Shown here: positions 10,215-59,755 of the stretch, one piece after another | Layout of the letters: each line of letters begins with the position of its first letter | Numbering within the stretch: position 1 is the first letter of the stretch | IMG/VR virus record: IMGVR_UViG_3300042924_007750 | Location: 1 to 59,755 of that record | Strand: one strand, 5' to 3' | Source of the DNA: a virus | Lineage: Duplodnaviria; Caudoviricetes | DNA length: 59,755 nt | Made by a program: the position numbers and the translations under genes | The notes under the pieces: generated by a model | Database searches by the model: none | What the model was told of the DNA's origin: nothing | Seen by the model: the letters and a program-made list of their open reading frames with translations, nothing else

Positions 10215-10599
10215 TGGTAACGCAATTAGCCTAGTTTTACCGGACGGACAAAAAAACTATCTTATTGATATTGATGGTACAATAACCGACGACGTTCCAA
10301 ATGAAGAACCATGGAGAATGGAAACATGCCTCCCGTACGAGGGGTCAATTGAACTAATCAACAGTTGGTATAACGAGGGTCATATAATAACATTTTTCAC
10401 ATCTAGGACAGAATCACACCGCAAGGTTACTGAAGACTGGCTCAAAAAACACAGTTACTCTTACCACAATTTATTGATGAATAAACCCCAAGGTGGAAAT
10501 TATCATTGGATTGATAACCATATTGTTAGGGCAACAAGATATGAGGGTAAATGGACCAAAATGACAAAGAAAAAATTAAACATAGAAGTTTTTGAATAA
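10189..10599 (+). CDS. Small HAD-superfamily phosphatase
   Basis: DIDGTI motif I, FTSR motif II, LLMNKP...IDN. Confidence 0.8.
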   Translation: MDLGQQEYNGNAISLVLPDGQKNYLIDIDGTITDDVPNEEPWRMETCLPYEGSIELINSWYNEGHIITFFTSRTESHRKVTEDWLKKHSYSYHNLLMNKPQGGNYHWIDNHIVRATRYEGKWTKMTKKKLNIEVFE

Positions 10600-12233: not shown

Positions 12234-12943
12234 TGACCATTCTGACTACCGCTTATAATTGTGAGACATTCATAGAAAAGTCGTTGTATAGCATCATGTC
12301 ACAACAATATAAAGATTTTAAATGTTACGTATTTGATGATTTATCCAGTGATAATACAAGCCAAAAAGTCCAAGATATTATCAAAGATGACCCAAGATTC
12401 TTTCTAATACAAAACACAAAAAAGTTATATCAACCAGGAAACTATGATTTAGTTATACGACACATGAATTTACCGGACGATGAAATTTGTATCGAGGTTG
12501 ATGGTGATGATTGGTTGCCCAATTCTAAAGTTTTTTCATTCATAAATGATTTGTATAGAAATGAAGATGTGTGGATAACAAGCGGTTCTTTTTCTTACCA
12601 TGATGGTCGACAAGGGTTTGCAAGTCCACCAACAACAATTGAAAATTTAAGAAAACAGGCATTCACTTTATCGCATTTACGAACTTGGAAATCCTGGCTT
12701 TGGAAAAAAATCCAAGAAGAAGATTTAAAAGATTCAACGGGGGAATACTGGTCCGTATCTGGAGATTTAGCTTTTATGTTTCCAATGTTAGAGATGTCTG
12801 GTTTAGAACACTTTAAATTTTTAGCAGAGAAACTCTACATCTACAATGAATCCAATCCTTTGAATGACCACAAAGTTAATATGTCAAATGTGGTAAAAAC
12901 CACTAACATTATAAGAAATAAAATTCCGTATAAAAAAATCTAA
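12233..12943 (+). CDS. GT2 glycosyltransferase
   Basis: TTAYNCE, DDLSSD, VDGDDW. Confidence 0.88.
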   Translation: MTILTTAYNCETFIEKSLYSIMSQQYKDFKCYVFDDLSSDNTSQKVQDIIKDDPRFFLIQNTKKLYQPGNYDLVIRHMNLPDDEICIEVDGDDWLPNSKVFSFINDLYRNEDVWITSGSFSYHDGRQGFASPPTTIENLRKQAFTLSHLRTWKSWLWKKIQEEDLKDSTGEYWSVSGDLAFMFPMLEMSGLEHFKFLAEKLYIYNESNPLNDHKVNMSNVVKTTNIIRNKIPYKKI

Positions 12944-13654
12944 ATGAATCACACACCAAAAATATCTATTTGTATACCAACTTACGAAGCCAATGGTAGA
13001 GGCGTTGAATTTTTATCAAAAAATATCACCTCTATATTAGAGCAAAGTTACGAAAACTTTGAGATTGTAATTTCTGACCACTCGAAAAATGAGGAAATTG
13101 AGAAATTTGTTGAGTCATTAAATGACAATAAAATTGTATATTTAAGAAATTTAGAAAATGTTGGATGGCCCGCACACAATACCAATAATGCAATAAAAAA
13201 CTCTAGTGGAGATTACATCAAACTGATGAATCTTGACGATTATATTGAAGGTTCCGATTCAATACAATTGATGGTGGATTTGTTAAATCAAGGAAATAAA
13301 TGGGTTATTAGCGGGTGCAAGCACTTAAATTATGGTAATGGTGAATGGTCAAATCCAATAATTCCTCGTATTGAAAATGATGGTAGACATCTTTTACTAG
13401 GTATTAATTATGTTGGATGTCCCAGTGTTGGATTAATACCCCGAGAAGAATATTTTGACCCAGAAGTAATCTATATGATAGATTGTGAATTATGGTACAG
13501 AATGTTCATTAAATATGGTTATCCTGGTGTCTTGAAAGATTACAGAATTGTAATTGGAATTGGTGACCATACGCTTACCAATCAACTTGTTTCTAAACAT
13601 TCTGAGTGGTTAAACCAAGATATAAAATACTGTCAAATAAAATACCCTCTATGA
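12944..13654 (+). CDS. GT2 glycosyltransferase
   Basis: ISICIPTY, EIVISDHS, NLDD. Confidence 0.88.
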   Translation: MNHTPKISICIPTYEANGRGVEFLSKNITSILEQSYENFEIVISDHSKNEEIEKFVESLNDNKIVYLRNLENVGWPAHNTNNAIKNSSGDYIKLMNLDDYIEGSDSIQLMVDLLNQGNKWVISGCKHLNYGNGEWSNPIIPRIENDGRHLLLGINYVGCPSVGLIPREEYFDPEVIYMIDCELWYRMFIKYGYPGVLKDYRIVIGIGDHTLTNQLVSKHSEWLNQDIKYCQIKYPL

Positions 13655-14811
13655 AAAATATCCAACTTTTTATTCCCAAATTCAGAAAAGAAGAAATTCT
13701 TGAGCATATGTCCGTTTGTTTAGATAAAGGATGGACTGGACTAGGTTTCAAAACTGTAGAAATCGAAGAAATGTGGAAACAGTACACAAATCTACCATTT
13801 GCACACTTTATTAATTCAAATACCTCAGGATTACATCTTGCGATAAAAATTTTAAAAGACGCTAATAAATGGGCTGATGGTGATGAAATTATCACTAGTC
13901 CACTAACTTTTGTGTCTTCAAATCATGCAATAATGTATGAAAATTTGAAACCGGTCTTTGCAGACGTTGATGATTACTTGTGTTTGGACCCAACTTCAAT
14001 CGAATCTAAAATTACCAAAAAAACTAAAGCAATTTTATTCATTGGAATCGGTGGTAACACCGGTCAGCTGAACGCTGTAATTGAACTTGCAAAGAAACAT
14101 AAGCTAAAAGTTATTTTGGACGCAGCTCACATGGCGGGAACATTTATTAAAAATCCAAACACTGGAAAACCCGAACATGTTGGGCATAGAGTAGATGTGA
14201 GCGTTTTCAGTTTTCAAGCTGTTAAGAATTTACCAACGGCAGACTCAGGGATGATATGTTTTAATACCGAAGATTATGATATTTTGGTCCGCAAACTTTC
14301 CTGGTTAGGAATCGATAAAGACACGTATCAAAGAACAAATGATAAAGGTAGTTACAAGTGGGAATATGAACTCGTTGATGTCGGGTACAAATACCATGGA
14401 AACTCAATTATGGCATCCATGGCATTGGTTGGGTTAAAATACCTGGAAGAAGATAATCAAAGGAGAAGAGAAATTTGTGAAAAATATGAAAAAGAACTTA
14501 CCAAAAAAGGAGTTAAGGTTATCGTGTCGCACGACGATTGTATAAGTTCATCCAGACACCTTTTTCAAATAGTCGTTGATGAGCGTAATAAATTTATGGA
14601 ATTATTAAATTCAAGCGGGGTTTATCCGGGAGTACACTACCGAGACAATACCAACTATAAAATGTATAATGAATCATTTGGTCAATCTCCAAATTCACAT
14701 CACATTTCCGAAAAATTAATTTCATTACCATTGCATATGTATTTAACGGATACTGATGTTGAGTATGTAATTGAACAAGTTATTCGCGTTAATAATATTT
14801 TGAAAAAATGA
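13651..14811 (+). CDS. DegT/DnrJ/EryC1/StrS sugar aminotransferase
   Basis: NSNTSGLHLA, DAAH, FSFQAVKNL (catalytic Lys retained), LISLPLH; ATG 13651 overlaps the upstream stop. Confidence 0.9.
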   Translation: MKNIQLFIPKFRKEEILEHMSVCLDKGWTGLGFKTVEIEEMWKQYTNLPFAHFINSNTSGLHLAIKILKDANKWADGDEIITSPLTFVSSNHAIMYENLKPVFADVDDYLCLDPTSIESKITKKTKAILFIGIGGNTGQLNAVIELAKKHKLKVILDAAHMAGTFIKNPNTGKPEHVGHRVDVSVFSFQAVKNLPTADSGMICFNTEDYDILVRKLSWLGIDKDTYQRTNDKGSYKWEYELVDVGYKYHGNSIMASMALVGLKYLEEDNQRRREICEKYEKELTKKGVKVIVSHDDCISSSRHLFQIVVDERNKFMELLNSSGVYPGVHYRDNTNYKMYNESFGQSPNSHHISEKLISLPLHMYLTDTDVEYVIEQVIRVNNILKK

Positions 14812-15452
14812 AAGGAGCTATAATTTTAGGCGCTGCTGGTTTAGCTAAAGAATTTTACTATTACGTCAAAAGAGCTAAGCCACAAATCGAGGACTTTTTT
14901 TTCGTCAACGACATTGATGACGGACAAACTGAATTAGAAATAGATGGTACTATTTTCCCGGTAATCAAAAATTGGAAATTCCCCAAAAAATACCCTTTTA
15001 TTGTTGCTGTTGGAAATCCAAAAATAAAAAAAATTTTGGTGCAGAAAGCGCTTAATTGTGATTTATTTGCTTGTGATACAATTGTGGACCCTTCTGCCAT
15101 TGTTTTAATGGATAAAAAAAATTTAAGTAAAGGAGGTATGATTGCCCCTGGGTGTGTAGTAACATCTAATATAATTTTTGGTGATTATGTTACCTTGAAT
15201 TTGAACACAACTGTCGGCCACGACACAAAAATTGGAGATTATTGTACAACAAATCCTGGGGTTCATATTTCGGGCCAAATTGACATTGGTGAAAGTAATG
15301 AGTTCGGAACTGGATGTATTATCCGAGACAGATTATCAATAGGTTCTAACAAAACTTTTGGAGCTCAAACCGCAGTAGTCAAATCTATTTTAGGAAATAA
15401 CGAGGAAACTTATATTGGTATTCCAGCAAAAAAATTAGAAAAAAATGTATAA
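14808..15452 (+). CDS. PglD/NeuD-family sugar acetyltransferase
   Basis: GAAGLAKE, VAVGNP, hexapeptide repeats, VGHD, GIPAK. Confidence 0.88.
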   Translation: MKGAIILGAAGLAKEFYYYVKRAKPQIEDFFFVNDIDDGQTELEIDGTIFPVIKNWKFPKKYPFIVAVGNPKIKKILVQKALNCDLFACDTIVDPSAIVLMDKKNLSKGGMIAPGCVVTSNIIFGDYVTLNLNTTVGHDTKIGDYCTTNPGVHISGQIDIGESNEFGTGCIIRDRLSIGSNKTFGAQTAVVKSILGNNEETYIGIPAKKLEKNV

Positions 15453-16245
15453 CGTTGAAAAAATTTCAAATTGGGACTTACGAGTCAATATAGAAACAAA
15501 CAAACCCTGTGAATTGTATGTTGATAATTTTCCAAACACACCAAAAAATTCTTTGAGGGTGTTATGGGTGGTAGAGCCTGATGAAGTAAGTACAATTAAG
15601 ACTATTGTGTTTGGAAGACATCAAGAATTTGATTTAATCTTAACCTATGATGAAGATATCTTAAACAATTGTCCAAACGCAAAACTATATCCTCATGGAA
15701 TGAGTTGGATTCTTGATTTTGATTTTTCTAAAGAAAAAGAATTTGTAATCACATCTTTAGTTGGGGGAAAACAACTATCTCCAAATCATTTTTTGAGACA
15801 ACAATTACCCACTATTCAAAATCAAATAAATTCAGTTCCAGTTCATTTATTTAATAGTTTGAACAACCCTTACCCCGGTGAAGGAATTGAACGAACAATG
15901 ATGGACCGAGATAGAAAAAACGAATTGTTTTATTCTCAGTTCCACATAGCAATAGAGAATTTTTCAAAGAAAAATTATTTTAGTGAAAAATTAGTAGATT
16001 GTTTTCAAACCAAAACGGTTCCAATATATGTTGGTTGCCCCAATATTGGTGATTTTTATGATACTAGAGGAATGTTGATTGCTAACACAGCAGAAGAACT
16101 TATTGAAATTTGTAATTCGATTACACCAGAAACTTATAATAATATGTTGGAGTTTGTTGAAAAAAATTATGAATTGAGTATGCCCCATGCCTTGTTCAGA
16201 GAAGCTTTGAAAAATGAAGTGATAAATTTTGTAAACGCTAATTGA
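15445..16245 (+). CDS. GT10-like (alpha-1,3/4-fucosyltransferase family) glycosyltransferase
   Basis: FHIAIEN...YFSEKL.DCF...VPIYVG is the GT10 signature. Confidence 0.8.
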   Translation: MYNVEKISNWDLRVNIETNKPCELYVDNFPNTPKNSLRVLWVVEPDEVSTIKTIVFGRHQEFDLILTYDEDILNNCPNAKLYPHGMSWILDFDFSKEKEFVITSLVGGKQLSPNHFLRQQLPTIQNQINSVPVHLFNSLNNPYPGEGIERTMMDRDRKNELFYSQFHIAIENFSKKNYFSEKLVDCFQTKTVPIYVGCPNIGDFYDTRGMLIANTAEELIEICNSITPETYNNMLEFVEKNYELSMPHALFREALKNEVINFVNAN

Positions 16246-16246
16246 T

Positions 16247-16864
16247 ATGGACAATGAAATTGAATTAAATTTACAGAAGATAGTTGATGGACACCATAAG
16301 GTGACCTATCGGGGGATTAAAATGATAAAAAATCCTTTTGATTATTTGTTATATCAAATGATTATTAATGAAGTAAAACCAGATTTGATAATTGAAGTCG
16401 GAACTAATCACGGGGGTACGGCTCTTTATATGGCGGACATATTAGACATTATTGGACATGGCGAGATTCATACTATCGATGTTATGGAATATCCGATGGA
16501 CGAATTAATTTTGAACAACAAAAGAATTAAAAGATTTTTAGGAGGTTACGATTCATATGATTTGAAAAATTGTGAAAATTACCAAAAAATTTTAGTAATA
16601 GATGATGGCTCACATCTCTACAGTCATTCATTAGAAATACTACACAAGTTCAAAGATGTTGTAAGTGTTAATTCATACTTCATTGTTGAAGATGGTGCAT
16701 TAATACATATTGGTCTAACCAAAGATTATGGTGGTGGTCCAGTTCGTGCAATCGAGGAGTTTATGACTCAAAATGACGACTACATAATTGATAGAAAATG
16801 GTGTGATTTTTTTGGGACCAACGCAACTTTTAATACAAACGGGTTTTTAAAAAAAATTAAGTAA
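16247..16864 (+). CDS. CmcI-family (sugar O-)methyltransferase
   Basis: YRG...KNPFD..LYQ.II..VKPDLIIEVG, VIDDGSH, IVED. Confidence 0.85.
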   Translation: MDNEIELNLQKIVDGHHKVTYRGIKMIKNPFDYLLYQMIINEVKPDLIIEVGTNHGGTALYMADILDIIGHGEIHTIDVMEYPMDELILNNKRIKRFLGGYDSYDLKNCENYQKILVIDDGSHLYSHSLEILHKFKDVVSVNSYFIVEDGALIHIGLTKDYGGGPVRAIEEFMTQNDDYIIDRKWCDFFGTNATFNTNGFLKKIK

Positions 16865-17646
16865 TGGGTATTATTTCTACAAAATTGATGGGTGGTCTTG
16901 GAAATTATATGTTTCAAATTAGTGCCGCATTTGCGATTTCGTTGAGAGATAATAAAGAACTTATCTGTGAAACTTACGACACTCAAGTACCGCAGAAACC
17001 CGTACAAACGTATGAAAATAATTTATTCAAAAAGGTGAAATTTACCTCAGAACATATTGCACATATACCTTACGGAGAACCCAAATTTTCTTTTTCTGAA
17101 ATTCCATTTATTGAAGGTAACATGCGTCTGTATGGATATTTTCAAAGTGAAAAATATTTTACAAATTATAGAAAAGAAGTTTTAGAATTATTTGACTTGA
17201 ATCAAGAAATTCAAGAAAAAATCCAAGAAAAATACCAAGAAGTATTATCAAAAAATCCTACTTCACTTCATGTTAGAAGGGGAGACTATGTTTGGTTAAA
17301 TGATTATCATGCTAATCAACAAGTAAGTTATTATCAAGAAGCTATGAATTTGATTGGGTCGGAAGAACATTATTTAATTTTTTCAGATGACATTTCATGG
17401 TGTGAAGAAAATTTAAATTTTATAAAAAACAAAACGTTTGTTAAGGATAATTTAGACTATGAAGACCTTTTTCTAATGTCTTTTTGTTTGAATCATATAA
17501 TAGCAAATTCAAGTTTCAGTTGGTGGGGTGCGTGGCTGAATAAAAATGAAAATAAAAAAGTTGTTGCACCAAAACAATGGTTTGGTAAATCGAATTCACA
17601 TCTTGAAACAACAGACCTATATTGTGAAAAATGGCATATAATATGA
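16864..17646 (+). CDS. GT11 alpha-1,2-fucosyltransferase family
   Basis: GGLGNYMFQ, GYFQSEKYF, HVRRGDY, FSDD, NSSFSWWGAWL. Confidence 0.92.
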   Translation: MGIISTKLMGGLGNYMFQISAAFAISLRDNKELICETYDTQVPQKPVQTYENNLFKKVKFTSEHIAHIPYGEPKFSFSEIPFIEGNMRLYGYFQSEKYFTNYRKEVLELFDLNQEIQEKIQEKYQEVLSKNPTSLHVRRGDYVWLNDYHANQQVSYYQEAMNLIGSEEHYLIFSDDISWCEENLNFIKNKTFVKDNLDYEDLFLMSFCLNHIIANSSFSWWGAWLNKNENKKVVAPKQWFGKSNSHLETTDLYCEKWHII

Positions 17647-18566
17647 AAGCTTTAATCACTGGCTCAAATGGATTAGTCGGTTCTGCCTTAAAAAAAATTC
17701 TTGGTGAAAATCATGTTTATCACACAAGAAAAGATGCAGACTTAACTAATGAAATTCAAACAAAGGAATACATAAAAAATCAGATTGAGAATTTTGGCGT
17801 CGATACAATAATACACTGTGCTGCTAGAGTCGGCGGAGTGCAAGCTAATACCAGCAATAACCAAGGATTTTTTCTAGACAATTATTTAATCAATAATAAC
17901 ATTCTAAAATCTGCTTACGAATTTAATGTCCCAAACTTTGTCAACATACTATCCACTTGTATTTTTCCAGATAAAGAAATTACATATCCACTCACAGCAG
18001 ACCAAATAGATAAAGGCGCACCTCACCCTTCAAACTATGGATACTCGTACGCTAAAAGATTGGCGGGCTATGAAACCAAAATTTTTAGAAACTTAACTAA
18101 CGCCAATTGGATTAACATAGTACCAACAAACGTCTACGGGCCTAATGATAATTTTCATTTGATTGATAGTCATATGATACCTGGAATGATTCATAGAGCG
18201 TACCTTGCAAAAGAAAATAACGAAAAATTTGTGATTTGGGGTGATGGTACCCCCCTTAGACAATTTATTCATTCTGAAGATTTGGCAAGAAATATTCTTT
18301 GGGCTTTGAACAATTGGAATTCCGACACTCATTTTATGGCGATAAACGAAAAAGAAGTTTCTGTGATGGATATTGCCAATATAATCACAGAAAAATTTGA
18401 GTTAGCACAAGACCAATTAGTATTTGACGCCAGCAAGCCAAAAGGTCAATTCAGAAAACCAGCTAAAACAGACATACCATCCGACTATAATTTTGTGAGT
18501 CTCAAAGAAGGAATTTTTGAAACAATAGATTGGTTCATTAAAAATTATAGTAACGCTAGAAAATGA
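17643..18566 (+). CDS. fcl: GDP-L-fucose synthase (Fcl/WcaG) or ColC-type reductase
   Basis: TGSNGLVGSA, AARVGGV.AN, STCIFP, YSYAKR, PTNVYGPNDNF, WGDGTPLRQF. Confidence 0.88.
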   Translation: MKALITGSNGLVGSALKKILGENHVYHTRKDADLTNEIQTKEYIKNQIENFGVDTIIHCAARVGGVQANTSNNQGFFLDNYLINNNILKSAYEFNVPNFVNILSTCIFPDKEITYPLTADQIDKGAPHPSNYGYSYAKRLAGYETKIFRNLTNANWINIVPTNVYGPNDNFHLIDSHMIPGMIHRAYLAKENNEKFVIWGDGTPLRQFIHSEDLARNILWALNNWNSDTHFMAINEKEVSVMDIANIITEKFELAQDQLVFDASKPKGQFRKPAKTDIPSDYNFVSLKEGIFETIDWFIKNYSNARK

Positions 18567-19726
18567 AAAAAATTAATTTAGTAGAGGATACAATCACCAG
18601 AGAAGATATAAATTCATTGATTACTTGGTTGTCTGATTATCCACAACTCACGAAAGGACCAAAGACAATTGAGTTCGAAAAAAATTGGTCAGAATGGTTA
18701 GGTTCAAAATATTCTGTGTTTGTTAATTCAGGTTCATCAGCAAATTTACTTATGTTATATGCCCTAAAACATTTGGGTTTACTGAAAAATAAAAAAATTT
18801 GTGTACCTTCTTTATCCTGGGCAACAGACTTAGCACCGGTATTACAATTTGATTTGGAACCCATTCTCATTGATTGTAACCTGGATAATCTGTCTGTAGA
18901 TTTGAACCATCTAGAAACAACATTTAAGGAACAAAACCCATCAGTCCTGATTTTGGTTTCAGTTCTTGGACTTTCCCCCGATATGGATTCTATATCAAAA
19001 CTATGCGAACAATACGATGTTATTTTGTTGGAGGATAATTGTGAATCGCAGGGAACATCTTACAAAGGAAAAAAACTTGGAAACTTCGGATTGATGTCAT
19101 CTTTTTCGACTTTTTTTGGTCATACTATGAGTACGATAGAAGGGGGGGTTATTACAACAAATGATGAAAAAATTTACCACACATTACTTCAATTGCGCAG
19201 CCATGGTTGGTCAAGAGATTTACCAATTACCGAACAAAAAAAATTGCAGAAAGAATGGAATTGTGATGACTTTTCTAACCTTTATACTTTTTTCATCCCC
19301 GGATTTAATCTGAGAAGTACGGATTTGCAAGCACAAATTGGTATAAATCAATTAGCAAAAATAGATGAAATTATTGCAAAACGTAACGAAAACTTCAAAA
19401 CTTACCAAAAAATTTTAAGTTCAGAAGTTTGGTTCCCAAATGAAATTGAACATTCGTATACCGCAAATTTTGCAATACCAATTTTGACTTCTAATTCAGA
19501 ATCGAAAAAGAATTTGATAAAAGAATTGATTAAAAATGAAATTGCTTGCAGACCTCTAATTTCTGGTTCTATGGGTACACAACCTTTTTATAAGAAATTA
19601 TATGGTGAAACAAAATTACCAAATTGCACTATTGTTGATAACTGTGGTATCTATGTCCCTAATCACCCAAACTTGAAGCAAAAAGAAATCAAACTAATTT
19701 GTGATATCATTTTGAATAACAAATAA
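18563..19726 (+). CDS. ColD/RfbH-like PLP/PMP-dependent 3-dehydratase (DegT superfamily, His at the Lys position)
   Basis: VNSGSSANLL, EDNCES, SFSTFFGHTMSTIEGG (H instead of K), LRSHGW, GFNLRSTD. Confidence 0.8.
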   Translation: MKKINLVEDTITREDINSLITWLSDYPQLTKGPKTIEFEKNWSEWLGSKYSVFVNSGSSANLLMLYALKHLGLLKNKKICVPSLSWATDLAPVLQFDLEPILIDCNLDNLSVDLNHLETTFKEQNPSVLILVSVLGLSPDMDSISKLCEQYDVILLEDNCESQGTSYKGKKLGNFGLMSSFSTFFGHTMSTIEGGVITTNDEKIYHTLLQLRSHGWSRDLPITEQKKLQKEWNCDDFSNLYTFFIPGFNLRSTDLQAQIGINQLAKIDEIIAKRNENFKTYQKILSSEVWFPNEIEHSYTANFAIPILTSNSESKKNLIKELIKNEIACRPLISGSMGTQPFYKKLYGETKLPNCTIVDNCGIYVPNHPNLKQKEIKLICDIILNNK

Positions 19727-19727
19727 A

Positions 19728-20516
19728 ATGGTTAGATTAGTCAAAACTATAAGGCAAGAATGGGAAGTGAGGGGCTATTACTCGTATTTGGGTGAAGCTG
19801 TTATTGAAATCATGTGGGCAAAACAAAAATTTCCTGGAGAGGAAATTAAAGTTTTTTTTGATTTAAGAAATATTCATCATTACAAACAAGACAATTTATT
19901 TGACGTTTGTTTTGAACAAGACCATGAAGACTATAATGAATATAGAAATGAATACATTAACATTGAAAGTCTAAATTCTGAAATACTACTCAACCATTAT
20001 GATTTAACAATTTTTCCGCAGGATATTAGAGAACTTTCAGAACCAATCATCAAAGACTATTTTTGTTTAAAACCTAAATTGTCGGCTGAGTTAGAAAGAA
20101 GACTTCAGTTGATTGATTTGGAAAATACAATATCAGTTCATAGACGCGATACTGACATGAAAATTGGGCATGGAATAACCGCGCCAGTCCTTCAACAATT
20201 TTATTCAATAATTGACGAAGGTAATTATACCAATATTTTTGTAATGTCTGACAACAAACCAGACCTAGACCTTTTTGTTAAGAAATATTCAAATAGAGTT
20301 ATTTCATTTGAGGAAGATACTACAAGTACTGATATCAATTACCCATATTTTCTCATAGGGGGGACTGGACCTGAAGAAATGCAAAAACACATTGAAAATT
20401 TAACACTCAACACTATTATCTTGAGTAAAACAAAAAAATTGATTTGTAGTAAGTCAAATTTATCAACTTTTGCAATTCTTGCTAACCCTAAACTAGAATA
20501 TATTAAATTAAATTAA
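19728..20516 (+). CDS. NodZ/GT23-like fucosyltransferase-superfamily protein
   Basis: ISVHRRDTD, IFVMSD, LICSKSNLS match the three conserved fucosyltransferase motifs. Confidence 0.65.
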   Translation: MVRLVKTIRQEWEVRGYYSYLGEAVIEIMWAKQKFPGEEIKVFFDLRNIHHYKQDNLFDVCFEQDHEDYNEYRNEYINIESLNSEILLNHYDLTIFPQDIRELSEPIIKDYFCLKPKLSAELERRLQLIDLENTISVHRRDTDMKIGHGITAPVLQQFYSIIDEGNYTNIFVMSDNKPDLDLFVKKYSNRVISFEEDTTSTDINYPYFLIGGTGPEEMQKHIENLTLNTIILSKTKKLICSKSNLSTFAILANPKLEYIKLN

Positions 20517-20521
20517 AAAAC

Positions 20522-21154
20522 ATGTACAACTCACAAATTGGGCAAGATAAATTCATAGATGAATTTTTTGAAAAAAAAGAAGGATTAACTTTCTTAGATA
20601 TTGGTGCTCACGATGGAGTTTCAATTTCTAACACCTTTTTTTTAGAAAAGGAAAGAAACTGGAACGGAATCTGTATCGAAGCGCAACCCTCTGAATTTGA
20701 AAAATTGAAATCAAATAGGAAATGTATTTGTGTTAACGTTGCTGTTTCAAATTATAATGGAGAAACGGATTTTATTTATGTAGAAGGATATGCAAATATG
20801 CTATCAGGAATATCGGACGATTACAATCTTTCACACAAGCATAGAATTGAAAATGAAGTAAGAGCTTATGGTGGTGCTATTAATACCATCAAGGTTCCGG
20901 TTAAAACTCTCCAGAGCATACTAGATGACCATAACATACACAATATAGATTTCTGTTCAATTGACACTGAAGGCTCAGAATTTAATATTATCAAATCAAT
21001 TGACTTTGATAAAACAGAAATTAAGGTTTTTATAATCGAAAACAATTACGGCGAAAAAAATATAGAAAACTTTCTTATTGAAAAGGGATATGCTCTCTAT
21101 AAAAAAATCGAATGGGACGATGTTTTTGTAAAACAAAAATATATTAATAATTAA
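20522..21154 (+). CDS. FkbM-family methyltransferase
   Basis: SQIGQD, FLDIGAHDG..SNT, SIDTEGSE. Confidence 0.9.
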   Translation: MYNSQIGQDKFIDEFFEKKEGLTFLDIGAHDGVSISNTFFLEKERNWNGICIEAQPSEFEKLKSNRKCICVNVAVSNYNGETDFIYVEGYANMLSGISDDYNLSHKHRIENEVRAYGGAINTIKVPVKTLQSILDDHNIHNIDFCSIDTEGSEFNIIKSIDFDKTEIKVFIIENNYGEKNIENFLIEKGYALYKKIEWDDVFVKQKYINN

Positions 21155-21156
21155 TA

Positions 21157-22137
21157 ATGGAACAAAAAAAAGCCCTTATTACAGGAATAAATGGTCAGGA
21201 CGGGTCCTACCTTGCAGAATTTTTATTGACAAAAGGATATCAAGTTCATGGAACATTGAAAAGAAATTCTGTGAGCGAAAATCAAACTGCAAGACTAGAT
21301 AGTATTTTTCATAAAATAACTTTGCATTATGCGGACTTAACCGATTTATCTTCGTTGATTTCTGTTATCCAAAAAATTCAACCTGACGAAATTTACAATT
21401 TAGCCGCACAATCGCATGTTAGAATTTCTTTTGACCAACCAATTTATACTGCTCAAGTTACAGGTTTGGGAACCCTTAATTTATTAGAAGCTGTTAGGCT
21501 GCTTAATCCTAAAATAAAAATTTACCAAGCCTCTTCATCTGAAATGTTTGGTAACTCAATCGATGCTGATGGATTTCAAAGGGAAACTACACCAATGACA
21601 CCAGTATCGCCTTACGGATGTGCTAAGGTTTTTTCATACAACATTTGCAAAAACTACAGAAATTCGTACAACATGTTTATATCAAATGGGATTTTATTTA
21701 ACCATGAATCACCAAGAAGGGGAACTAATTTTGTAACCAACAAAGTTGTCAAAGAAGCTGTAAAAATCAAATACGGGATTTCTTCTGAATTAAGACTTGG
21801 AAATCTAGATGCAACAAGGGACTGGGGTCATGCTAAAGATTATGTGGAGGCTATGTGGCTAATCTTGCAAGAGGAAAATCCTGATGATTTTGTTTGTTCA
21901 ACAGGTATTTCGCATTCTGTAAAAGAATTGTGTGAATACACCTTTTCTAAACTTGGCTTAAATTACCAGGACTGGGTGAAATTGGATGAGAAGTTTCTTA
22001 GACCGGAAGAATTACATGACTTAAAAGGAGATTCATCTAAATTGAAAAAAGTTACCAAGTGGAGTCCCAAGTACACGTTTGAAACAATGATTGATGAAAT
22101 GATAGAATATTGGCTTGAATTCTATAATAAAAAATGA
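21157..22137 (+). CDS. gmd: GDP-mannose 4,6-dehydratase
   Basis: ITGINGQDGSYLAE, NLAAQSHV, YQASSSEMFG, GILFNHESPRRG, RDWGHAKDYV. Confidence 0.96.
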   Translation: MEQKKALITGINGQDGSYLAEFLLTKGYQVHGTLKRNSVSENQTARLDSIFHKITLHYADLTDLSSLISVIQKIQPDEIYNLAAQSHVRISFDQPIYTAQVTGLGTLNLLEAVRLLNPKIKIYQASSSEMFGNSIDADGFQRETTPMTPVSPYGCAKVFSYNICKNYRNSYNMFISNGILFNHESPRRGTNFVTNKVVKEAVKIKYGISSELRLGNLDATRDWGHAKDYVEAMWLILQEENPDDFVCSTGISHSVKELCEYTFSKLGLNYQDWVKLDEKFLRPEELHDLKGDSSKLKKVTKWSPKYTFETMIDEMIEYWLEFYNKK

Positions 22138-22574
22138 TTAAACACTACATTTCACATCGAGGAAACGTCGATGGTAAAATTAAAAACATAGAGAATTCTC
22201 CAGATTATGTCCAAAGAGCTTTGTCTTTGGGTTACGAAGTTGAAATAGATGTTTGGTTCGTTGATGGCTCATTTTATTTGGGCCACGACGAGCCGCTTTA
22301 TTTGGTACAAGAATCTTTTTTAGAAAATGAAAATTTTTGGTGTCATGCAAAGAACGAAGAGGCTTTTAATAAAATGATGGTAAACTCTAACATTCATTGT
22401 TTCTGGCACCAGACAGATGATTATACTTTGACATCAAAAGGTATACCCTGGGTTTTCCCAGGTAAAAAAGTTCATAATAATAGTATTTGGGTTTTACCCG
22501 AAAATACAATTTATAAGAACATCATGATAAATTGTTTGGGTATTTGTTCCGATTATATTTCACAATACAAATGA
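22134..22574 (+). CDS. Short GDPD/PLC-like phosphodiesterase-fold protein
   Basis: ISHRGN...EN...VEIDVW...LGHD...GICSDY. Confidence 0.75.
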   Translation: MIKHYISHRGNVDGKIKNIENSPDYVQRALSLGYEVEIDVWFVDGSFYLGHDEPLYLVQESFLENENFWCHAKNEEAFNKMMVNSNIHCFWHQTDDYTLTSKGIPWVFPGKKVHNNSIWVLPENTIYKNIMINCLGICSDYISQYK

Positions 22575-23935
22575 TTAAGTTAATTATCTTTGATTTGGAT
22601 GGGGTTTTAATTGAAGCAAAACAATTTCATTATGAAGCTTTGAATGATGCCTTGATTAATCATGCACCAAACTGCGTAATTTCTTGGAATGAGCATTTGT
22701 CAAAGTATGATGGACTGAAAACCAAACAAAAATTGGCCATGCTTACCAATGACAAAGGACTTGACATCAAACTCCACAAAACCATTTGGGAAGAAAAACA
22801 AAAGATTACAAATGAAAAATTAAGAACAATAACCCCCAATTCTAATCTAACCACTTTATTAAAAAAACTCTCTGAGGATGGATTCAAAATAGCGTGTTGC
22901 AGCAATTCAATAAGAAAGACTGTTTTAACAGTTCTAGCCAAATTAGAAATCATAGAATATTTTGACCAAATCCTTTCCAACGAAGATGTGAAAAATAGCA
23001 AACCGCATCCGGAAATTTACTGGAAAGTAATTTCAGAGATGGGTGTTATCGCAGAAGAAACATTAATAGTTGAGGATTCACCTTATGGACTTTTAGCCGC
23101 ATCTAGAACTCATGCCCCTATACTGAGAGTTTCATCTCCAAAAGATGTTACCATAGAAAATCTCTATGGAAAATTAAAAGATTTAAATACGAAGTTTAAA
23201 ATGAAGAAACCCAAATGGACCGATGAAAAACTAAACGTTTTGATTCCAATGGCGGGAGCTGGTTCAAGATTTGAAAAAGCTGGTTTTACATTCCCTAAAC
23301 CGCTTATTGATGTTGAGGGGGACCCTATGATTAAATTGGTCACAGAGAACTTGAATCTACGAGCAAACTTTATTTACATAGTTCAAAAATCCCACCGGGA
23401 AAAATATAACCTTGATACATTGCTTAATCTAATATCCCCCAACTGTAAAATCGTTGAGGTTGATGGTCTTACAGAAGGTGCTGCGTGCACAACCTTATTA
23501 GCTAAAGAATTTATTGACAACGACAATCCATTGGTTATGGCAAATTCGGACCAGTATATTGAATGGGACTCCAATGAGTTTATGTATAAGATGATGGAAA
23601 CCAATTGTGATGGGGGGATAGTTACTTTCAAATCTACTCACCCTAAATGGTCTTTTGCTAAGGTTAATGAAAATGGTCTAGTCAGTGAAGTAGCTGAGAA
23701 AAATCCCATTTCTGACATTGCCACAGTCGGAATATACTACTGGAATAGGGGGGCTGATTATGTAAAGTATGCTCAGCAAATGATTGAAAAAAATATAAGG
23801 GTAAATAACGAGTTTTATGTGTGCCCAGTATTCAACGAAGCAATAGGCGATGGAAAAGAAATTAGAACCTTTGAAATCCAAAAAATGATGGGTCTTGGAA
23901 CCCCAGAGGATTTAACAACTTATTTAAGGCGATAA
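22571..23935 (+). CDS. HAD phosphatase fused to sugar-phosphate nucleotidyltransferase
   Basis: N-half FDLDGVL, KPHPEIY, VEDS; C-half IPMAGAGSRF...PKPLI, EGAACT, AEK, GLGTPEDL. Confidence 0.88.
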   Translation: MIKLIIFDLDGVLIEAKQFHYEALNDALINHAPNCVISWNEHLSKYDGLKTKQKLAMLTNDKGLDIKLHKTIWEEKQKITNEKLRTITPNSNLTTLLKKLSEDGFKIACCSNSIRKTVLTVLAKLEIIEYFDQILSNEDVKNSKPHPEIYWKVISEMGVIAEETLIVEDSPYGLLAASRTHAPILRVSSPKDVTIENLYGKLKDLNTKFKMKKPKWTDEKLNVLIPMAGAGSRFEKAGFTFPKPLIDVEGDPMIKLVTENLNLRANFIYIVQKSHREKYNLDTLLNLISPNCKIVEVDGLTEGAACTTLLAKEFIDNDNPLVMANSDQYIEWDSNEFMYKMMETNCDGGIVTFKSTHPKWSFAKVNENGLVSEVAEKNPISDIATVGIYYWNRGADYVKYAQQMIEKNIRVNNEFYVCPVFNEAIGDGKEIRTFEIQKMMGLGTPEDLTTYLRR

Positions 23936-52684: not shown

Positions 52685-52762
52685 ATTAATAAATATTTTT
52701 TACAGTGCGTTTGGAAATGTGCGTTTTTTGTTTAACCTTTGTACAAATCAAATTATGAAACC

Positions 52763-54766
52763 ATGAGCGAAACTATGGACGACGACGACGATAAGGCCCT
52801 CGGTAGGAAGAAACCCTCTTCCGATTCTAGAACTCCTGTTCTGGATAATTTTTCCCGTGACCTTAATAAACTTGCTGAGCAAGGAAAGCTCGACCCAGTA
52901 ATTGGTCGAGAAAAAGAAATCGTGCGCATTGCACAGATTCTCTCTCGTAGAAAAAAGAACAACCCTATCATCCTAGGTGAACCGGGTTGTGGTAAAACCG
53001 CAATTGTGGAGGGTCTTGCGAGCTTGATTGTAAATGGAAGCTGTCCCAAGAACCTTCTTGATAAGCGCATCGTCACCCTTGACCTTACAGCAGTTGTTGC
53101 TGGTACAAAATACCGTGGTCAGTTTGAGGAGCGTCTTAAGGTTATCTTGGAGGAACTTTCCCAAAACCCCAACATCGTCATCTTCATTGATGAAATCCAT
53201 ACCTTAATTGGTTCGGGTAACTCTTCCGGTAGCCTAGATGGTTCCAACATCTTTAAACCTGCTTTGGCTAGAGGGGAAATCCAGTGCATCGGCGCTACCA
53301 CGTTGGATGAATACCGCAAATCATTTGAAAAGGACGGAGCTTTGGAGCGTCGCTTCCAAAAGGTAATGGTGGACCCATCCACCGTTGCTGAAACCATTCA
53401 AATTCTCACCAACATCCGAGACCGCTACGAGGCATTTCACAAGGTATCGTACTCTGATGAAGTCATCGAGCTGTGTGTAAAGCTCGCTGACCGTTACATC
53501 ACCGACCGAGAATTCCCTGACAAAGCATTTGATATCCTTGATGAAGTGGGAGCTCGCAGTCAGACCGAGCAGAAGATTCCAGAGATAATTGAGGAGCTTA
53601 AACATAAAGCTGCTGATATTAAGCTTCAGAAGATGGAAGTTGTAAAAAAGCAGAACTACGAAGAAGCTGCGGCACTTCGTGATAAAGAACGGAATATTCT
53701 TGTAAAACTTCAAAATGAGAAGAAGAAGTTCGAACAAGAGTCCGCAACCCATCGTGTTCCAATTACCGTGGAGCAGGTATACGATGTCGTATCTAATATG
53801 ACCAAAATCCCGGTGAGCAAAATGTCAATTGATGACACCAACGCTCTTATCAATATGGACAAGGTTCTTATGAGCAAGGTCATTGGTCAAGATGAAGCGG
53901 TCTCCAAGATTGTTAAATCAATCCGTAGAAACCGCATCGGAATTAAAGACCCCAACCGTCCGATTGGTTCGTTTATATTCCTTGGTTCAACGGGAGTTGG
54001 TAAGACTCACCTGGCAAAGCAAATTGCAAAGGAAATGTTTGGTTCGGAAAGCGCTCTTATCCGCGTTGACATGAGCGAATACCAGGAGAAGCACACAATT
54101 TCCCGATTGGTTGGAGCGCCTCCGGGATATGTGGGTTACGAAGAAGGTGGACAGCTGACCGAACAAGTCAAAAACAAACCTTATGCTGTAATCCTATTCG
54201 ATGAAGTTGAAAAGGCACACAAGGACATCTTTTCGATTTTGCTCCAAATTCTAGATGATGGTCACGCAACCGATTCATTGGGACGCAAAATCAACTTCAA
54301 GAACACCTTGATTATCATGACCACAAACCTTGGGGTTAAGAAACTACAGGATTTTGGTTCCGGAATCGGTTTTTCTTCCAACAAGTATTCAAACGAGGAG
54401 GCAAAAAAACAAATTTTGATGAAGGAAATGAAGAACTTCTTCTCACCTGAATTCATCAACCGTATCGACGATACAATTGTTTTTGAAACTTTATCACAAG
54501 AAAATATCCAACAAATCGTTGGTTTGGAATTAGAAAAGCTTTCCAAGCGTTTGGGTGAAATGAAATATAAGATTGTGATGGATAAAACTGTAACCGAATA
54601 CATCGCAAAAGTTGGATTCGACCAGGTTTATGGTGCACGTCCAATCAAGCGTGCCATCCAGGATAAAATCGAGGACTTCCTGTCCGAACTTATCCTAATT
54701 GGCAAACTCAAAGAAAACCGCAAATATACCATCAAGGTGGTGGACGAGCAGGTGAAAATCTCTTAA
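52763..54766 (+). CDS. clpC: ClpC-like AAA+ unfoldase lacking the Clp N-domain
   Basis: GKLDPVIGR, GEPGCGKT, FIDEIH, UVR-type M-domain (QNYEEAAALRD), GSTGVGKT, FDEVEKAH, GIGF ClpP-docking loop, YGARP. Confidence 0.92.
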   Translation: MSETMDDDDDKALGRKKPSSDSRTPVLDNFSRDLNKLAEQGKLDPVIGREKEIVRIAQILSRRKKNNPIILGEPGCGKTAIVEGLASLIVNGSCPKNLLDKRIVTLDLTAVVAGTKYRGQFEERLKVILEELSQNPNIVIFIDEIHTLIGSGNSSGSLDGSNIFKPALARGEIQCIGATTLDEYRKSFEKDGALERRFQKVMVDPSTVAETIQILTNIRDRYEAFHKVSYSDEVIELCVKLADRYITDREFPDKAFDILDEVGARSQTEQKIPEIIEELKHKAADIKLQKMEVVKKQNYEEAAALRDKERNILVKLQNEKKKFEQESATHRVPITVEQVYDVVSNMTKIPVSKMSIDDTNALINMDKVLMSKVIGQDEAVSKIVKSIRRNRIGIKDPNRPIGSFIFLGSTGVGKTHLAKQIAKEMFGSESALIRVDMSEYQEKHTISRLVGAPPGYVGYEEGGQLTEQVKNKPYAVILFDEVEKAHKDIFSILLQILDDGHATDSLGRKINFKNTLIIMTTNLGVKKLQDFGSGIGFSSNKYSNEEAKKQILMKEMKNFFSPEFINRIDDTIVFETLSQENIQQIVGLELEKLSKRLGEMKYKIVMDKTVTEYIAKVGFDQVYGARPIKRAIQDKIEDFLSELILIGKLKENRKYTIKVVDEQVKIS

Positions 54767-57878: not shown

Positions 57879-59304
57879 CTTCAAGTATTTGTTGCAAAGA
57901 TAATAAAATATTTTTACTTTCAAAATTAAATCTTGGGTTGTTATACCAATTCAAAAAATCTTCTCGCGACATTTTGACTATCTTTCCCCAATTAGGCCCA
58001 TTTGTCACCCTAAATTCAACAATATCGTCATCTATATCATAACTTAAAACAGAGAAATTTTCTTTAGTGTGGGGGTTTTCAGGGTAACCCCAGGAACTTT
58101 TTAAAGATGCCAAAAAATTTAAAAATGATTTTCTATCAGAAAAGTTAGAACTTTGCAATTTTTCCAAAATGTAATTTAAATCATCCTCGGTTTCGACGCC
58201 CAAAGAATCATAATCCATAAATTCATCATCGAAAAAATTATATTTATCTTCTTCCCAGCCTGACAAATCCCATTGATTATTTTTTAGCAAATACTTTGAC
58301 AAAACTTCTTTCATTGAGGCGTGAGTTAAATTTTGCATTTGCATAAATAGGTATAGTGGAACCATTGGAATTTCGAGGGTTCTATCAAGAGGTCTGAACC
58401 TTATTCCGGTATTTTTTTGAAACTTTGCCAATTCTTCTAAAATTCGTCTCCGCATATTTTTAAAACTAGCTTCATCTTCGTGCCTTGCAAAATAATTTAA
58501 AATATTTTCCATAGAATTCCTAAAAGAACCAAAAAGAATCTGGTTGGCACTTTTTACCTCATCATCACTAACGACCGGTTTACCCCCATTAATAATTTTA
58601 TAAATTGTATTAGCAACCTCCAACAAACGGGGATTTCCCTGGAAAATATATCCTAAAGTAAAGCTTCCATCCATAAAATTGTCGTACACACCACTAAGGT
58701 CTTCAGCGTTAATAAAACACTCAAGGTTAGGGTTTAGCGCACAGTCCATCATACCCAAATCCCAATCATACAATTTTAAAATTTCGATTAAGAATTCCTC
58801 GTCAGTTTCAAAATTCAAAACTAACGTAGATTTGTTTCGCGGCTCCTTTTCATTAACATAATCCACAAATTCAGTTCTGTCAAAAATTTCATCAGAAGCA
58901 CCACCCAACAAAAATCTTTTTAAGTTATAATTTAAAAAATCAGGTCTTTTAGTAAAAAAATCAAAAACTTCTTCTTTTTTATCATTATCCACCGGATAAT
59001 AAAATAACGCCTCATTTGAATGAAGGAAATCTGCAGGATTTAAAAAAGACCCATCTTTGTCCGAAACAACATTCCCAGCGTCAGTAACTTCATCAGAATA
59101 CCTCAAAAGTAAAAATTTACTGTCATCCTCATTTTTTATAATATAAACCTCATCGGTGTTTTGTATCGGAACAATAAACTCATTATAAAATTCTGGTTCA
59201 CACCATTTTGTACCCTCAGCATCTGAACAAAAACTTTCACGGTTCATGTATTTTGTAACCTCACCACCAGAAGTTTTTAAAATTTTTCTTTTTGGATTTG
59301 CCAT
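57817..59304 (-). CDS. Hypothetical protein
   Basis: 495-aa ORF; TATTTAT at 59311-59317, 6 nt before the ATG. Confidence 0.8.
   Translation of the reverse strand: MANPKRKILKTSGGEVTKYMNRESFCSDAEGTKWCEPEFYNEFIVPIQNTDEVYIIKNEDDSKFLLLRYSDEVTDAGNVVSDKDGSFLNPADFLHSNEALFYYPVDNDKKEEVFDFFTKRPDFLNYNLKRFLLGGASDEIFDRTEFVDYVNEKEPRNKSTLVLNFETDEEFLIEILKLYDWDLGMMDCALNPNLECFINAEDLSGVYDNFMDGSFTLGYIFQGNPRLLEVANTIYKIINGGKPVVSDDEVKSANQILFGSFRNSMENILNYFARHEDEASFKNMRRRILEELAKFQKNTGIRFRPLDRTLEIPMVPLYLFMQMQNLTHASMKEVLSKYLLKNNQWDLSGWEEDKYNFFDDEFMDYDSLGVETEDDLNYILEKLQSSNFSDRKSFLNFLASLKSSWGYPENPHTKENFSVLSYDIDDDIVEFRVTNGPNWGKIVKMSREDFLNWYNNPRFNFESKNILLSLQQILEDASRKNSTPKRGTIGSHSNS
57895..57924 (-). promoter_or_regulatory. 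Bacteroidota sigma70-type promoter embedded in the upstream gene
   Basis: Minus strand TTTG-N18-TATCTTTG, 16 nt before ATG 57878. Confidence 0.6.
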
Positions 59305-59327
59305 AATAATATAAATACTTATATTTG
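59297..59327 (+). promoter_or_regulatory. Consensus Bacteroidota sigma70 promoter for the ncRNA/tmRNA unit
   Basis: TTTG (59297-59300), N19, TATATTTG (59320-59327). Confidence 0.75.
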
Positions 59328-59333
59328 TACTAT

Positions 59334-59416
59334 GAAATCACAGGTGGCTCCCTTAATAGTTAAGGCTGACCTTAAGCATCTGACGTTATGTCTATACAGG
59401 GGGCGAAAGTGATTTC
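59334..59416 (+). ncRNA. Unassigned structured RNA candidate
   Basis: Nested stems GAAATCAC/GTGATTTC, GCTCCCT/AGGGGGC and ATAG/CTAT enclose two hairpins whose loops begin CTGA; starts at the predicted TSS. Confidence 0.6.
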
Positions 59417-59436
59417 TTATTGTTCTTTGAAAAAAT

Positions 59437-59755
59437 GGGGGTGACCGGTATTGATTGGCAGAGTTATTCATACGGGGCATGCAGTGAGAAGTTTCCTATC
59501 ACTTTAATCTATGGGGGCGAATTTCAAACGGCGAAACTTTCGCAAAACTCGAGGCAGTGGGTCTTCTCGCTGCTGAGGAAGTTACTGTAGCCTAAGGCAA
59601 CAGCAACAATGGGTCGATGGACATATAACCTAGAAACAGAAGTCCGTACGGTGTGGTTTCTACCTTAAAAGGAATGGAGGTCATGTTTGGTGTTCTACCG
59701 ATTTGAGTGAACATCCCACAGTTGCTGGTAACGATGGAAAAATTGGAACCAAATA
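59437..59755 (+). ncRNA. ssrA: tmRNA, 3' end beyond the window; tag ORF 59530-59595 = GETFAKLEAVGLLAAEEVTVA*
   Basis: 5' GGGGGTGACCGGTATTGA, GCATGC, pk1 (AGTGA/TCACT, TTTCC/GGGGG), resume context AAAC-GGC, stop codon TAA in the loop of hairpin GTTACTGTAGCC/GGCAACAGCAAC. Confidence 0.88.

Follow-up and report, generated by a model that had tools for sequence, protein, structure and literature searches.

An 83-nt element of a T4-like phage, read directly at positions 59334-59416 (plus strand) of the window, by which is meant the whole 59,755-bp stretch of DNA analysed, is a member of a family of small, autonomous RNA modules that has not been catalogued before, as shown by comparison of its sequence with those of its relatives. 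The same comparison shows a fold that is a nested double pseudoknot, with helices P1 and P2 interleaved around P3 and a variable P4. The core of about 67 nt, accompanied by a closing helix, was nearly invariant whatever the flanks, hosts or connectivity, and almost all of its unpaired nucleotides were fixed; few small RNAs are so strongly conserved yet missing from Rfam. Among the readings of its function we place first, tentatively, a self-cleaving or processing ribozyme with HDV-like topology that would cut at the 5' edge of P1.

The window is an IMG/VR record with an estimated completeness of 19% (CheckV), and it encodes a T4-type major capsid protein, portal and large terminase (gp23, gp20 and a T4-type terminase), which assigns it to a T4-like phage. 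A sugar-modifying cluster at 10599-23935, including glycosyltransferases, two DegT-type aminotransferases and a HAD and nucleotidyl-transferase fusion, is unusual cargo beside T4-like structural genes. A previous sequence-only reading of this DNA had described an 83-nt structured RNA beginning after a TTTG-N19-TATATTTG motif and ending ahead of a tmRNA gene, and its coordinates, the motif, the 6-nt gap from the motif to the start of the element and the 20-nt gap from the end of the element to GGGGGUGACC at 59437 were all found as it had given them. We take the motif to be a Bacteroidota-type promoter consensus. A sigma-70 scan of the window also marked 59298-59325, TAnnTTTG-type motifs lie at equal distance before the element in relatives, and the transcript carrying the element and the tmRNA would likely start at this promoter-like site. 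No terminator-like site was detected in the window by the site scan. The motif GUUCUUUGAA in the spacer before the tmRNA was also found within approximately 75 nt downstream of the core in 26/86 loci and within 85 nt upstream in 13/86 loci, while across the whole window it was not enriched (16 matches compared to 14 expected), and it may represent a processing or promoter-related signal between RNA modules.

Neither ARAGORN nor Rfam called a tmRNA in the window, because the boundary truncates the gene. Complete homologues (403-412 nt) immediately after the element were called as tmRNA by ARAGORN in four loci (L016, L027, L036 and L037) and by Rfam in three of these (L016, L036 and L037), and the window encodes the matching tag GETFAKLEAVGLLAAEEVTVA*. 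The tag is unusually long. A two-domain Clp-type AAA+ ATPase (AAA_2, ClpB_D2-small) is encoded at 52739-54766, about 5 kb upstream, and together with the tmRNA it may give the phage a tagging and unfolding system of its own. The features of this region are collected in Table 1.

Table 1. Features of the element and its flanks in the window.
Feature	Position	Strand	Remarks
Promoter-like TTTG-N19-TATATTTG	59297..59327	+	TTTG at 59297-59300, TATATTTG at 59320-59327, read directly
P0 5' strand, GAAAUCAC (P1 of the sequence-only reading)	59334..59341	+	pairs with 59409-59416
P1 5' strand, AGGUG (pseudoknot)	59342..59346	+	pairs with 59377-59381
P2 5' strand, GCUCCCU	59347..59353	+	pairs with 59398-59404
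Junction UAAUAG (P2 to P3)	59354..59359	+	A59358 and G59359 covary with U59367 and C59366
P3 hairpin (hairpin 1 of the sequence-only reading)	59360..59375	+	four variable pairs, invariant GG/CC, loop CUGA
P1 3' strand, CAUCU	59377..59381	+	pairs with 59342-59346
P4 hairpin, GAC-GUUAU-GUC, peripheral, variable	59382..59392	+	starts directly after CAUCY
Junction (U)AUAC before the P2 3' strand	59393..59397	+	AUA nearly invariant
P2 3' strand, AGGGGGC	59398..59404	+	pairs with 59347-59353
GAAA linker (GAAN in the family)	59405..59408	+	between the P2 3' strand and the P0 3' strand
P0 3' strand, GUGAUUUC	59409..59416	+	pairs with 59334-59341
Spacer before tmRNA	59417..59436	+	contains GUUCUUUGAA at 59422-59431
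tmRNA gene, 3' end cut by the window boundary	59437..59755	+	homology to full-length tmRNAs; tag frame 59530-59595

The minimum free energy of the element was -26.3 kcal/mol (z = -3.2) with equally stable shuffles in 0/200, and this, together with the recurrence of the core in many unrelated flanks, indicates a fold beyond chance. Within an alignment of 70 distinct rows, standard pairs occupied 98.8% of cells as compared to 91.8% with shuffled partners, where the observed value was reached in 0/500 shuffles, and at most 59.7% when the partners were slid along the alignment. Compensatory changes were found in four helices. Fold statistics and covariation among homologues thus both support the proposal of a structured RNA, and conservation is at the level of structure rather than of a peptide. 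The covariation gave the strand order P1a-P2a-P3-P1b-P4-P2b, in which P2a follows P1a, and P4 follows P1b, without any linker.

The helix assignments of the sequence-only reading were partly retained. Its outermost helix, here P0, held up well, with 15 distinct 5' strands among 46 type A sequences and complementarity always kept; across all 75 distinct sequences the mean number of P0 pairs was 5.4 of 7 as compared to 3.68 with shuffled partners (largest shuffle 4.08). Its P2 likewise stands, with standard pairs in 99.2% of cells, a first pair that was GC in 53, GU in 10, AU in 5 and other in 2 of the 70 distinct rows, and other pairs that were nearly invariant including the U.G third pair. Its first hairpin (UUAAGG-CUGA-CCUUAA), here P3, is upheld by changes on both sides in 4/6 pairs in the 70 distinct rows, and the loop in relatives is YYGA or AUGA where it is not CUGA. 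The AGGUG strand had been placed opposite GAAA in an internal loop and instead pairs with CAUCU as the pseudoknot P1 (RGGUG/CAUCY in the family, 98.9% of cells paired), in which the first position features five standard pair types (GC 25, AU 22, GU 17, CG 3, UA 2, other 1) and the third is GU in 60 and AU in 10 of the 70 rows. The second hairpin that had been drawn, GCAU/AUGU with a CUGAC loop, is replaced by P4, a GAC-loop-GUC hairpin that varies in length and sequence, with 2 to 8 pairs in relatives and a cap that is often GAAA or another tetraloop. A further short helix, AUAG/CUAU, is not retained, as its A and G covary with the loop of the first hairpin and the CU of CUAU is not kept in relatives.

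The linkers between the helices were also fixed to a large extent. The UAAU of the P2 to P3 junction was invariant (70/70 rows), in part because the search patterns demanded it. The two junction-loop pairs, at positions 17-26 and 18-25 in the numbering of alignment A4, were AU 60, GC 8, CG 1 and GU 1, and GC 65, GU 2, AU 1 and other 2, respectively, in the 70 rows. On geometric reasoning a contact of 59358-59359 with 59366-59367 within one molecule beside a 6-bp stem is sterically hard, and it may be that the GG/CC are not simple pairs, that the fold differs, or that the contact is made between two molecules of a dimer. The (U)AUAC junction ended in C in 68/70 rows and in A in 2, and the GAAN linker consisted of G (70/70), A (69), A (69) and a last position that was A in 57, U in 6, G in 5 and C in 2.

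The same core was found in two connectivities. In type A, to which the window belongs, the strand directly 5' of P1 pairs with the strand directly 3' of GAAN to form P0, with at least 6 of 7 pairs in 46/75 distinct sequences representing 15 different helices. In type B both P0 and the P4 hairpin are missing and the strand at the P4 position pairs with the 3' tail over 6-10 bp in an X-type helix. The automatic assignment placed fourteen sequences in type B, of which L124 is really type A, and the type B copies comprise 6/7 MAG copies together with the viral loci L080, L095, L114, L116, L117, L123 and L129; a further four (L081, L086, L104 and L131) were assigned by eye. The Beckwithbacteria MAG copy (L066/L072) is type A; in the region 1501-1724 of L072 it lies about 50 nt upstream of an ORF, the N-terminus of which presumably resembles an IS1595-type transposase. 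Copies located inside tmRNA keep P4 and have just 3-5 of the 7 P0 pairs. The two connectivities fit a fold that places the first nucleotides of the (U)AUAC junction next to the 5' end of P1.

The search for homologues used several patterns. A 21-base exact stretch of the element was found in 38 viral contigs, the two outer core segments with the hairpins left free in 61, the inner segments with P1, P2 and the 3' half left free in 99 (80 of the 99 among the matches listed), and a looser pattern in 117 (80 of the 117 among the matches listed). Most homologues were retrieved by patterns that fixed parts of the core, and the invariance of those parts is therefore partly by construction; each pattern left other core parts free, and those parts stayed fixed too. 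Two loci found by the covariance model alone (L075 and L076) differ at few core positions. This model, of 67 core positions, found exactly one copy per locus in 87/87 and in 78/78 loci. One pattern searched against one genome each of 185,579 prokaryote species gave 5 stretches in 5 contigs, all from MAGs of 0.7-1.2 Mb with Saccharibacteria, Beckwithbacteria, Patescibacteria and Gammaproteobacteria labels and one labelled 'bacterium'. Around one carrier MAG (G006) the core model had hits in 2/151 genomes across the phylum and 4/121 across the order, carriers included, indicating that the RNA is sporadic and not housekeeping in those genomes.

DNA carrying the family came from lake and freshwater metagenomes, and the element is common to T4-like lake phages and small (0.7-1.2 Mb) MAGs and travels with phage-borne translation RNAs. 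RNA-library contigs (Logan) contain core relatives, one at a depth of 15.7 covering 59346-59409 and one at a depth of 3.6 covering 59311-59381, and they hint that the element is expressed; these contigs carry neither end nor strand information, the one of depth 3.6 extends upstream of the putative promoter, and they speak neither for nor against cleavage. A blastn search of INPHARED phages with the element region had no match. The 495-aa protein encoded upstream was used as a query and led to one locus that ended before the element; searching that record at the DNA level gave no match. A large catalogue of phage structured RNAs has been published (PMC10690425). No description of the motif was found in a full-text literature search; the supplementary motif lists of PMC10690425 and PMC10879173 may include it with no function assigned.

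The genomic contexts of 87 loci were compared. The 5' end of a same-strand tmRNA, identified by nhmmer match to the window tmRNA sequence, lay 26-56 nt downstream of the core in 30/87 loci, while ten copies were inside the PK2 region of a 466-472-nt tmRNA called by ARAGORN. A same-strand tRNA was located within 300 nt downstream in twenty-one loci, and in three loci a tRNA was present upstream only, at 4-86 nt, such that 24/87 loci were beside same-strand tRNAs. The twenty-one included eight with tRNA-Glu at 17 nt and others with tRNA-Gln, Pro or Arg at 12-15 nt. Type B copies began 4-8 nt after a tRNA 3' end in 5/8 cases (L074, L081, L116, L123 and L131). None of these contexts applied in 23/87 loci, consisting of 4 cut by contig ends, 3 with an uncalled tmRNA-like sequence and 16 without a nearby stable-RNA gene. 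Among these sixteen and later loci the element was found between ORFs, including L101 where the P0 3' strand abuts a start codon; in L044, L050 and L054 it was upstream of unrelated small ORFs, and in L082, L114 and L115 directly before intrinsic-terminator-like hairpins. No opposite-strand tRNA or tmRNA was found within 1.5 kb in any of the 87 loci, and no shared protein was found among the neighbouring genes.

Several other RNA features were observed in these contigs. L071 (1040-1210) features a complete tRNA-Thr followed by a partial tRNA 3' fragment with T arm and acceptor strand, a hairpin and the element, and the duplicated fragment may be an integration scar at a tRNA gene. In L073 (minus strand), some 20-130 nt after the element, a stretch of about 110 nt ends in a T-arm and an acceptor-like 3' strand with no ARAGORN or Rfam call, and may represent a tRNA-like RNA of aberrant form. 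In the tRNA-array contexts of L039 and L032, further short GC-rich hairpins follow the promoter-like motif and precede the element, and they are probably small RNAs too. GOLLD RNA genes were present in phage contigs that also carry the element and tRNA arrays (L031 9607-10019 and L025 1998-2418).

These mixed contexts point to an autonomous module rather than an ssrA-specific leader. The sequence-only reading had offered a regulatory leader for ssrA as one option, and a cis-acting 5' leader is close to it, with a compact paired 5' end that would shield the tmRNA or tRNA precursor from decay or aid its folding or transcription read-through. Such a role is in keeping with the thirty loci including the window in which a promoter-like motif lies a few nucleotides before the element and a tmRNA shortly after it, and with twelve more (the eight tRNA-Glu loci, L085, L092, L095 and L108) where a tRNA follows the element at 12-17 nt. 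We consider it unlikely, since the module also occurs within tmRNA, with tRNAs on its upstream side only, in 3' UTRs before terminators, before unrelated ORFs or within arrays, and a simple protective hairpin needs neither about 45 fixed nucleotides nor three tertiary pairings.

A riboswitch aptamer in which the closing helix P0 controls downstream expression was judged very improbable. The variable closing helix, fixed pseudoknotted core and variable peripheral hairpin are aptamer-like, and the start codon of L101 and the terminator-like hairpins after L082, L114 and L115 are placed where such control might act. The genes downstream are however tmRNA, unrelated ORFs and tRNAs of at least seven specificities (Glu, Met, Pro, Gln, Arg, Phe and Gly), there is no expression platform before the window tmRNA, and some copies are inside tmRNA. 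A riboswitch of the usual kind was rejected on this heterogeneity of downstream gene classes and on a window that has neither a terminator-like site nor an expression platform.

The module was present in the PK2 region of a 467-nt tmRNA in 10 viral contigs, and tmRNA-internal copies probably amount to 13 viral contigs as three more loci are of the same sequence class with no ARAGORN call. In these copies the Rfam model aligned P2 loosely to PK2 with low posterior probability. The module differs from a tmRNA PK2 in that it also occurs without a tmRNA nearby, and the downstream tmRNAs, that of the window included, have their own PK2. The element is a cause of annotation errors, with ARAGORN misreading it as the tag in 7/10 tmRNA-internal copies called among 24 loci scanned; the false tag VKADLEHLIV..DLYRGRK in L047, L048, L049, L053, L056, L062 and L063 is the translated element, while true tags, ending in AVAA, were seen in L057 and L064. 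An acceptor piece of a two-piece (permuted) tmRNA was rejected: neither a T-arm nor an acceptor strand is present in the element, and the tmRNAs that follow it are complete.

The possibility that the conserved stretch is a DNA-level or coding feature, whether a tmRNA fragment, an attachment site or the 26-codon ORF, was given hardly any weight. The ORF that the sequence-only reading had seen overlapping the element at 59332-59412 does exist, the element lies within the tmRNA gene in one phage group, and the duplicated tRNA-Thr 3' fragment of L071 is beside it. Against this are the compensatory changes in four helices, the completeness of the downstream tmRNAs without the element, and the search of 185,579 species, each represented by a single genome, in which the exact core occurred in only 5 stretches and in none of the called tmRNAs. 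As a peptide gene the ORF was rejected on the same RNA changes and because P4 indels break the frame and the ATG is absent from most relatives; the middle segment is 8 to 23 nt in relatives and does not vary in multiples of three, so a common reading frame is broken.

Known RNA families did not account for the element, in agreement with the earlier failure to match it to tRNA, SRP, 6S, hammerhead or a riboswitch. An Rfam 15 scan of the whole window at gathering thresholds gave no match, and cmscan at E <= 10 of window positions 59000-59755 and of the type B locus L074 (1380-1640) gave no known ribozyme family, HDV-like and hammerhead included. The permissive scans returned chance-level matches only, of snoRNA type in the window and of plastid UTR and lncRNA type in L074. 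In the related loci Rfam matched only tRNA, tmRNA and GOLLD, and outside tmRNA none of these overlapped the element. No tRNA or tmRNA cloverleaf or tRNA-like domain was found on the element by ARAGORN or Rfam in the window or the loci, and an inspection by eye for K-turn, SRP, 6S, T-loop and anticodon-arm mimicry gave no supporting match. A hammerhead, classic or permuted, was rejected as there is no CUGAnGA block, CUGA occurs solely as the P3 loop, and the three blocks cannot be placed.

A stable, non-catalytic trans-acting small RNA is also a tentative possibility. It would be excised from tRNA or tmRNA precursors by RNase P and 3' processing, or else end at a terminator, and through its rigid pseudoknotted core it would engage a conserved protein or ligand, with a decoy, scaffold or cofactor role connected to translation or RNA metabolism. 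We regard this as nearly as likely as a ribozyme, and it better explains the fixed P2 and the window context: a constant P2 sequence and constant junctions are what a recognition surface would show, and the window element is at the transcript start, leaving little for a processing ribozyme to process. It is also consistent with the invariable co-orientation with stable-RNA genes (opposite-strand tRNA in 0/87), with copies that stand alone before terminator-like hairpins in L082, L114 and L115, with the tolerated graft into the PK2 region of tmRNA and, weakly, with the core relatives in RNA-library contigs. The sporadic distribution around G006 argues against a housekeeping partner function, the neighbouring genes have no protein in common, and two connectivities with the same core are left unexplained. 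If the RNA does not cleave, it would be a new stable RNA, the partner of which is probably conserved.

The ribozyme reading was ranked first on the HDV-like strand order, the zero-length linkers, the freely varying P4, the two connectivities and the scattered contexts. The length variation of P4 and its frequent GNRA cap are as expected of a peripheral ribozyme domain, and heterogeneous contexts are as for small ribozymes. In the window, the cut would fall between 59341 and 59342, separating the element and the downstream RNA from the upstream RNA; it would remove a triphosphate leader of about 8 nt, which would stay paired in P0, and the tmRNA, beginning 20 nt downstream, would next be freed by RNase P. 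For type B copies that follow a tRNA 3' end at 4-8 nt, cleavage would shorten the trailer of that tRNA, and for tmRNA-internal copies it would yield a two-piece tmRNA. The reading is weakened by the invariant P2 sequence, uncommon among ribozyme helices, by the commonest context, in which the element lies at the start of the transcript and no more than about 8 nt would be lost on cleavage, and by the absent J4/2 C, the rare G.U pair in P1, the lack of a matching Rfam ribozyme model and the awkward junction-loop geometry. As a compact object of about 80 nt the element is testable, and its four covarying helices give clear mutational predictions.

Small stable RNAs, species 1 and 2 (rnaC/rnaD), are encoded in the tRNA gene cluster of phage T4. 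They resemble the element as small stable RNAs co-transcribed with phage tRNAs, a likeness drawn by description only, and they are longer than the element. We know of no T4 small stable RNA with the fold described here.

In HDV-like ribozymes a G.U wobble closes P1 at the cleavage site, and in the HDV active site the J4/2 junction starts right beside the 5' end of P1. That conserved G.U pair contrasts with the element, where the closing pair is G.U in only 17/70 rows. The element also has a P1 of 5 bp and an extra closing helix (P0 or X), and its fixed 6-nt J2/3 pairs with the 4-nt L3 whereas the P1.1 of HDV-like ribozymes is built from J1/4.

Hammerheads are made up of three blocks, one with CUGAnGA that joins stems I and II, one with GAAA and one that holds the cleavage site, and non-circular permutation has been documented for them, as outlined in PMC10085705. 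The element has in common with the permuted hammerheads of that report one core in different pseudoknotting connectivities, one helix of fixed sequence and a helix-GAAA-helix block, and it differs in having no CUGAnGA between two helices. HDV-like ribozymes, as presented in PMC10879173, are double pseudoknots with the strand order P1a-P2a-P3-P1b-P4-P2b and a catalytic cytosine at the first position of J4/2, and the HDV-like theta ribozymes adjoin tRNAs in gut phages. The strand order, the nested double pseudoknot, the variable or dispensable P4 and the small size are common to HDV-like ribozymes and the element, which shares its phage origin and tRNA-adjacent position with theta ribozymes; the type B copies 4-8 nt behind tRNA 3' ends are reminiscent of the latter. 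The position after P4 in the element is by contrast U, C, G or A, and its only conserved junction C is the fourth or fifth nucleotide (A in 2/70 rows). A further difference is that most copies are 5' of tRNA or tmRNA, not 3', and the HDV-like Rfam models did not match. If catalytic, the element would therefore be a new class or a very divergent branch, failing as it does on the catalytic C, the G.U closing pair and the model match. A more specific proposal, put forward with greater reserve than the ribozyme reading as such, is a new self-cleaving class with HDV-type topology, a different active site and two non-circularly permuted connectivities (P0 and X), with which phages and some tiny-genome bacteria would cut tRNA and tmRNA precursors and which would yield a two-piece tmRNA in one phage group. 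Self-cleavage would make the family a naturally permuted addition to the known ribozymes, as a class of its own or as a far-diverged branch of the HDV-like ones, and would provide an RNA-only route for tRNA and tmRNA maturation.
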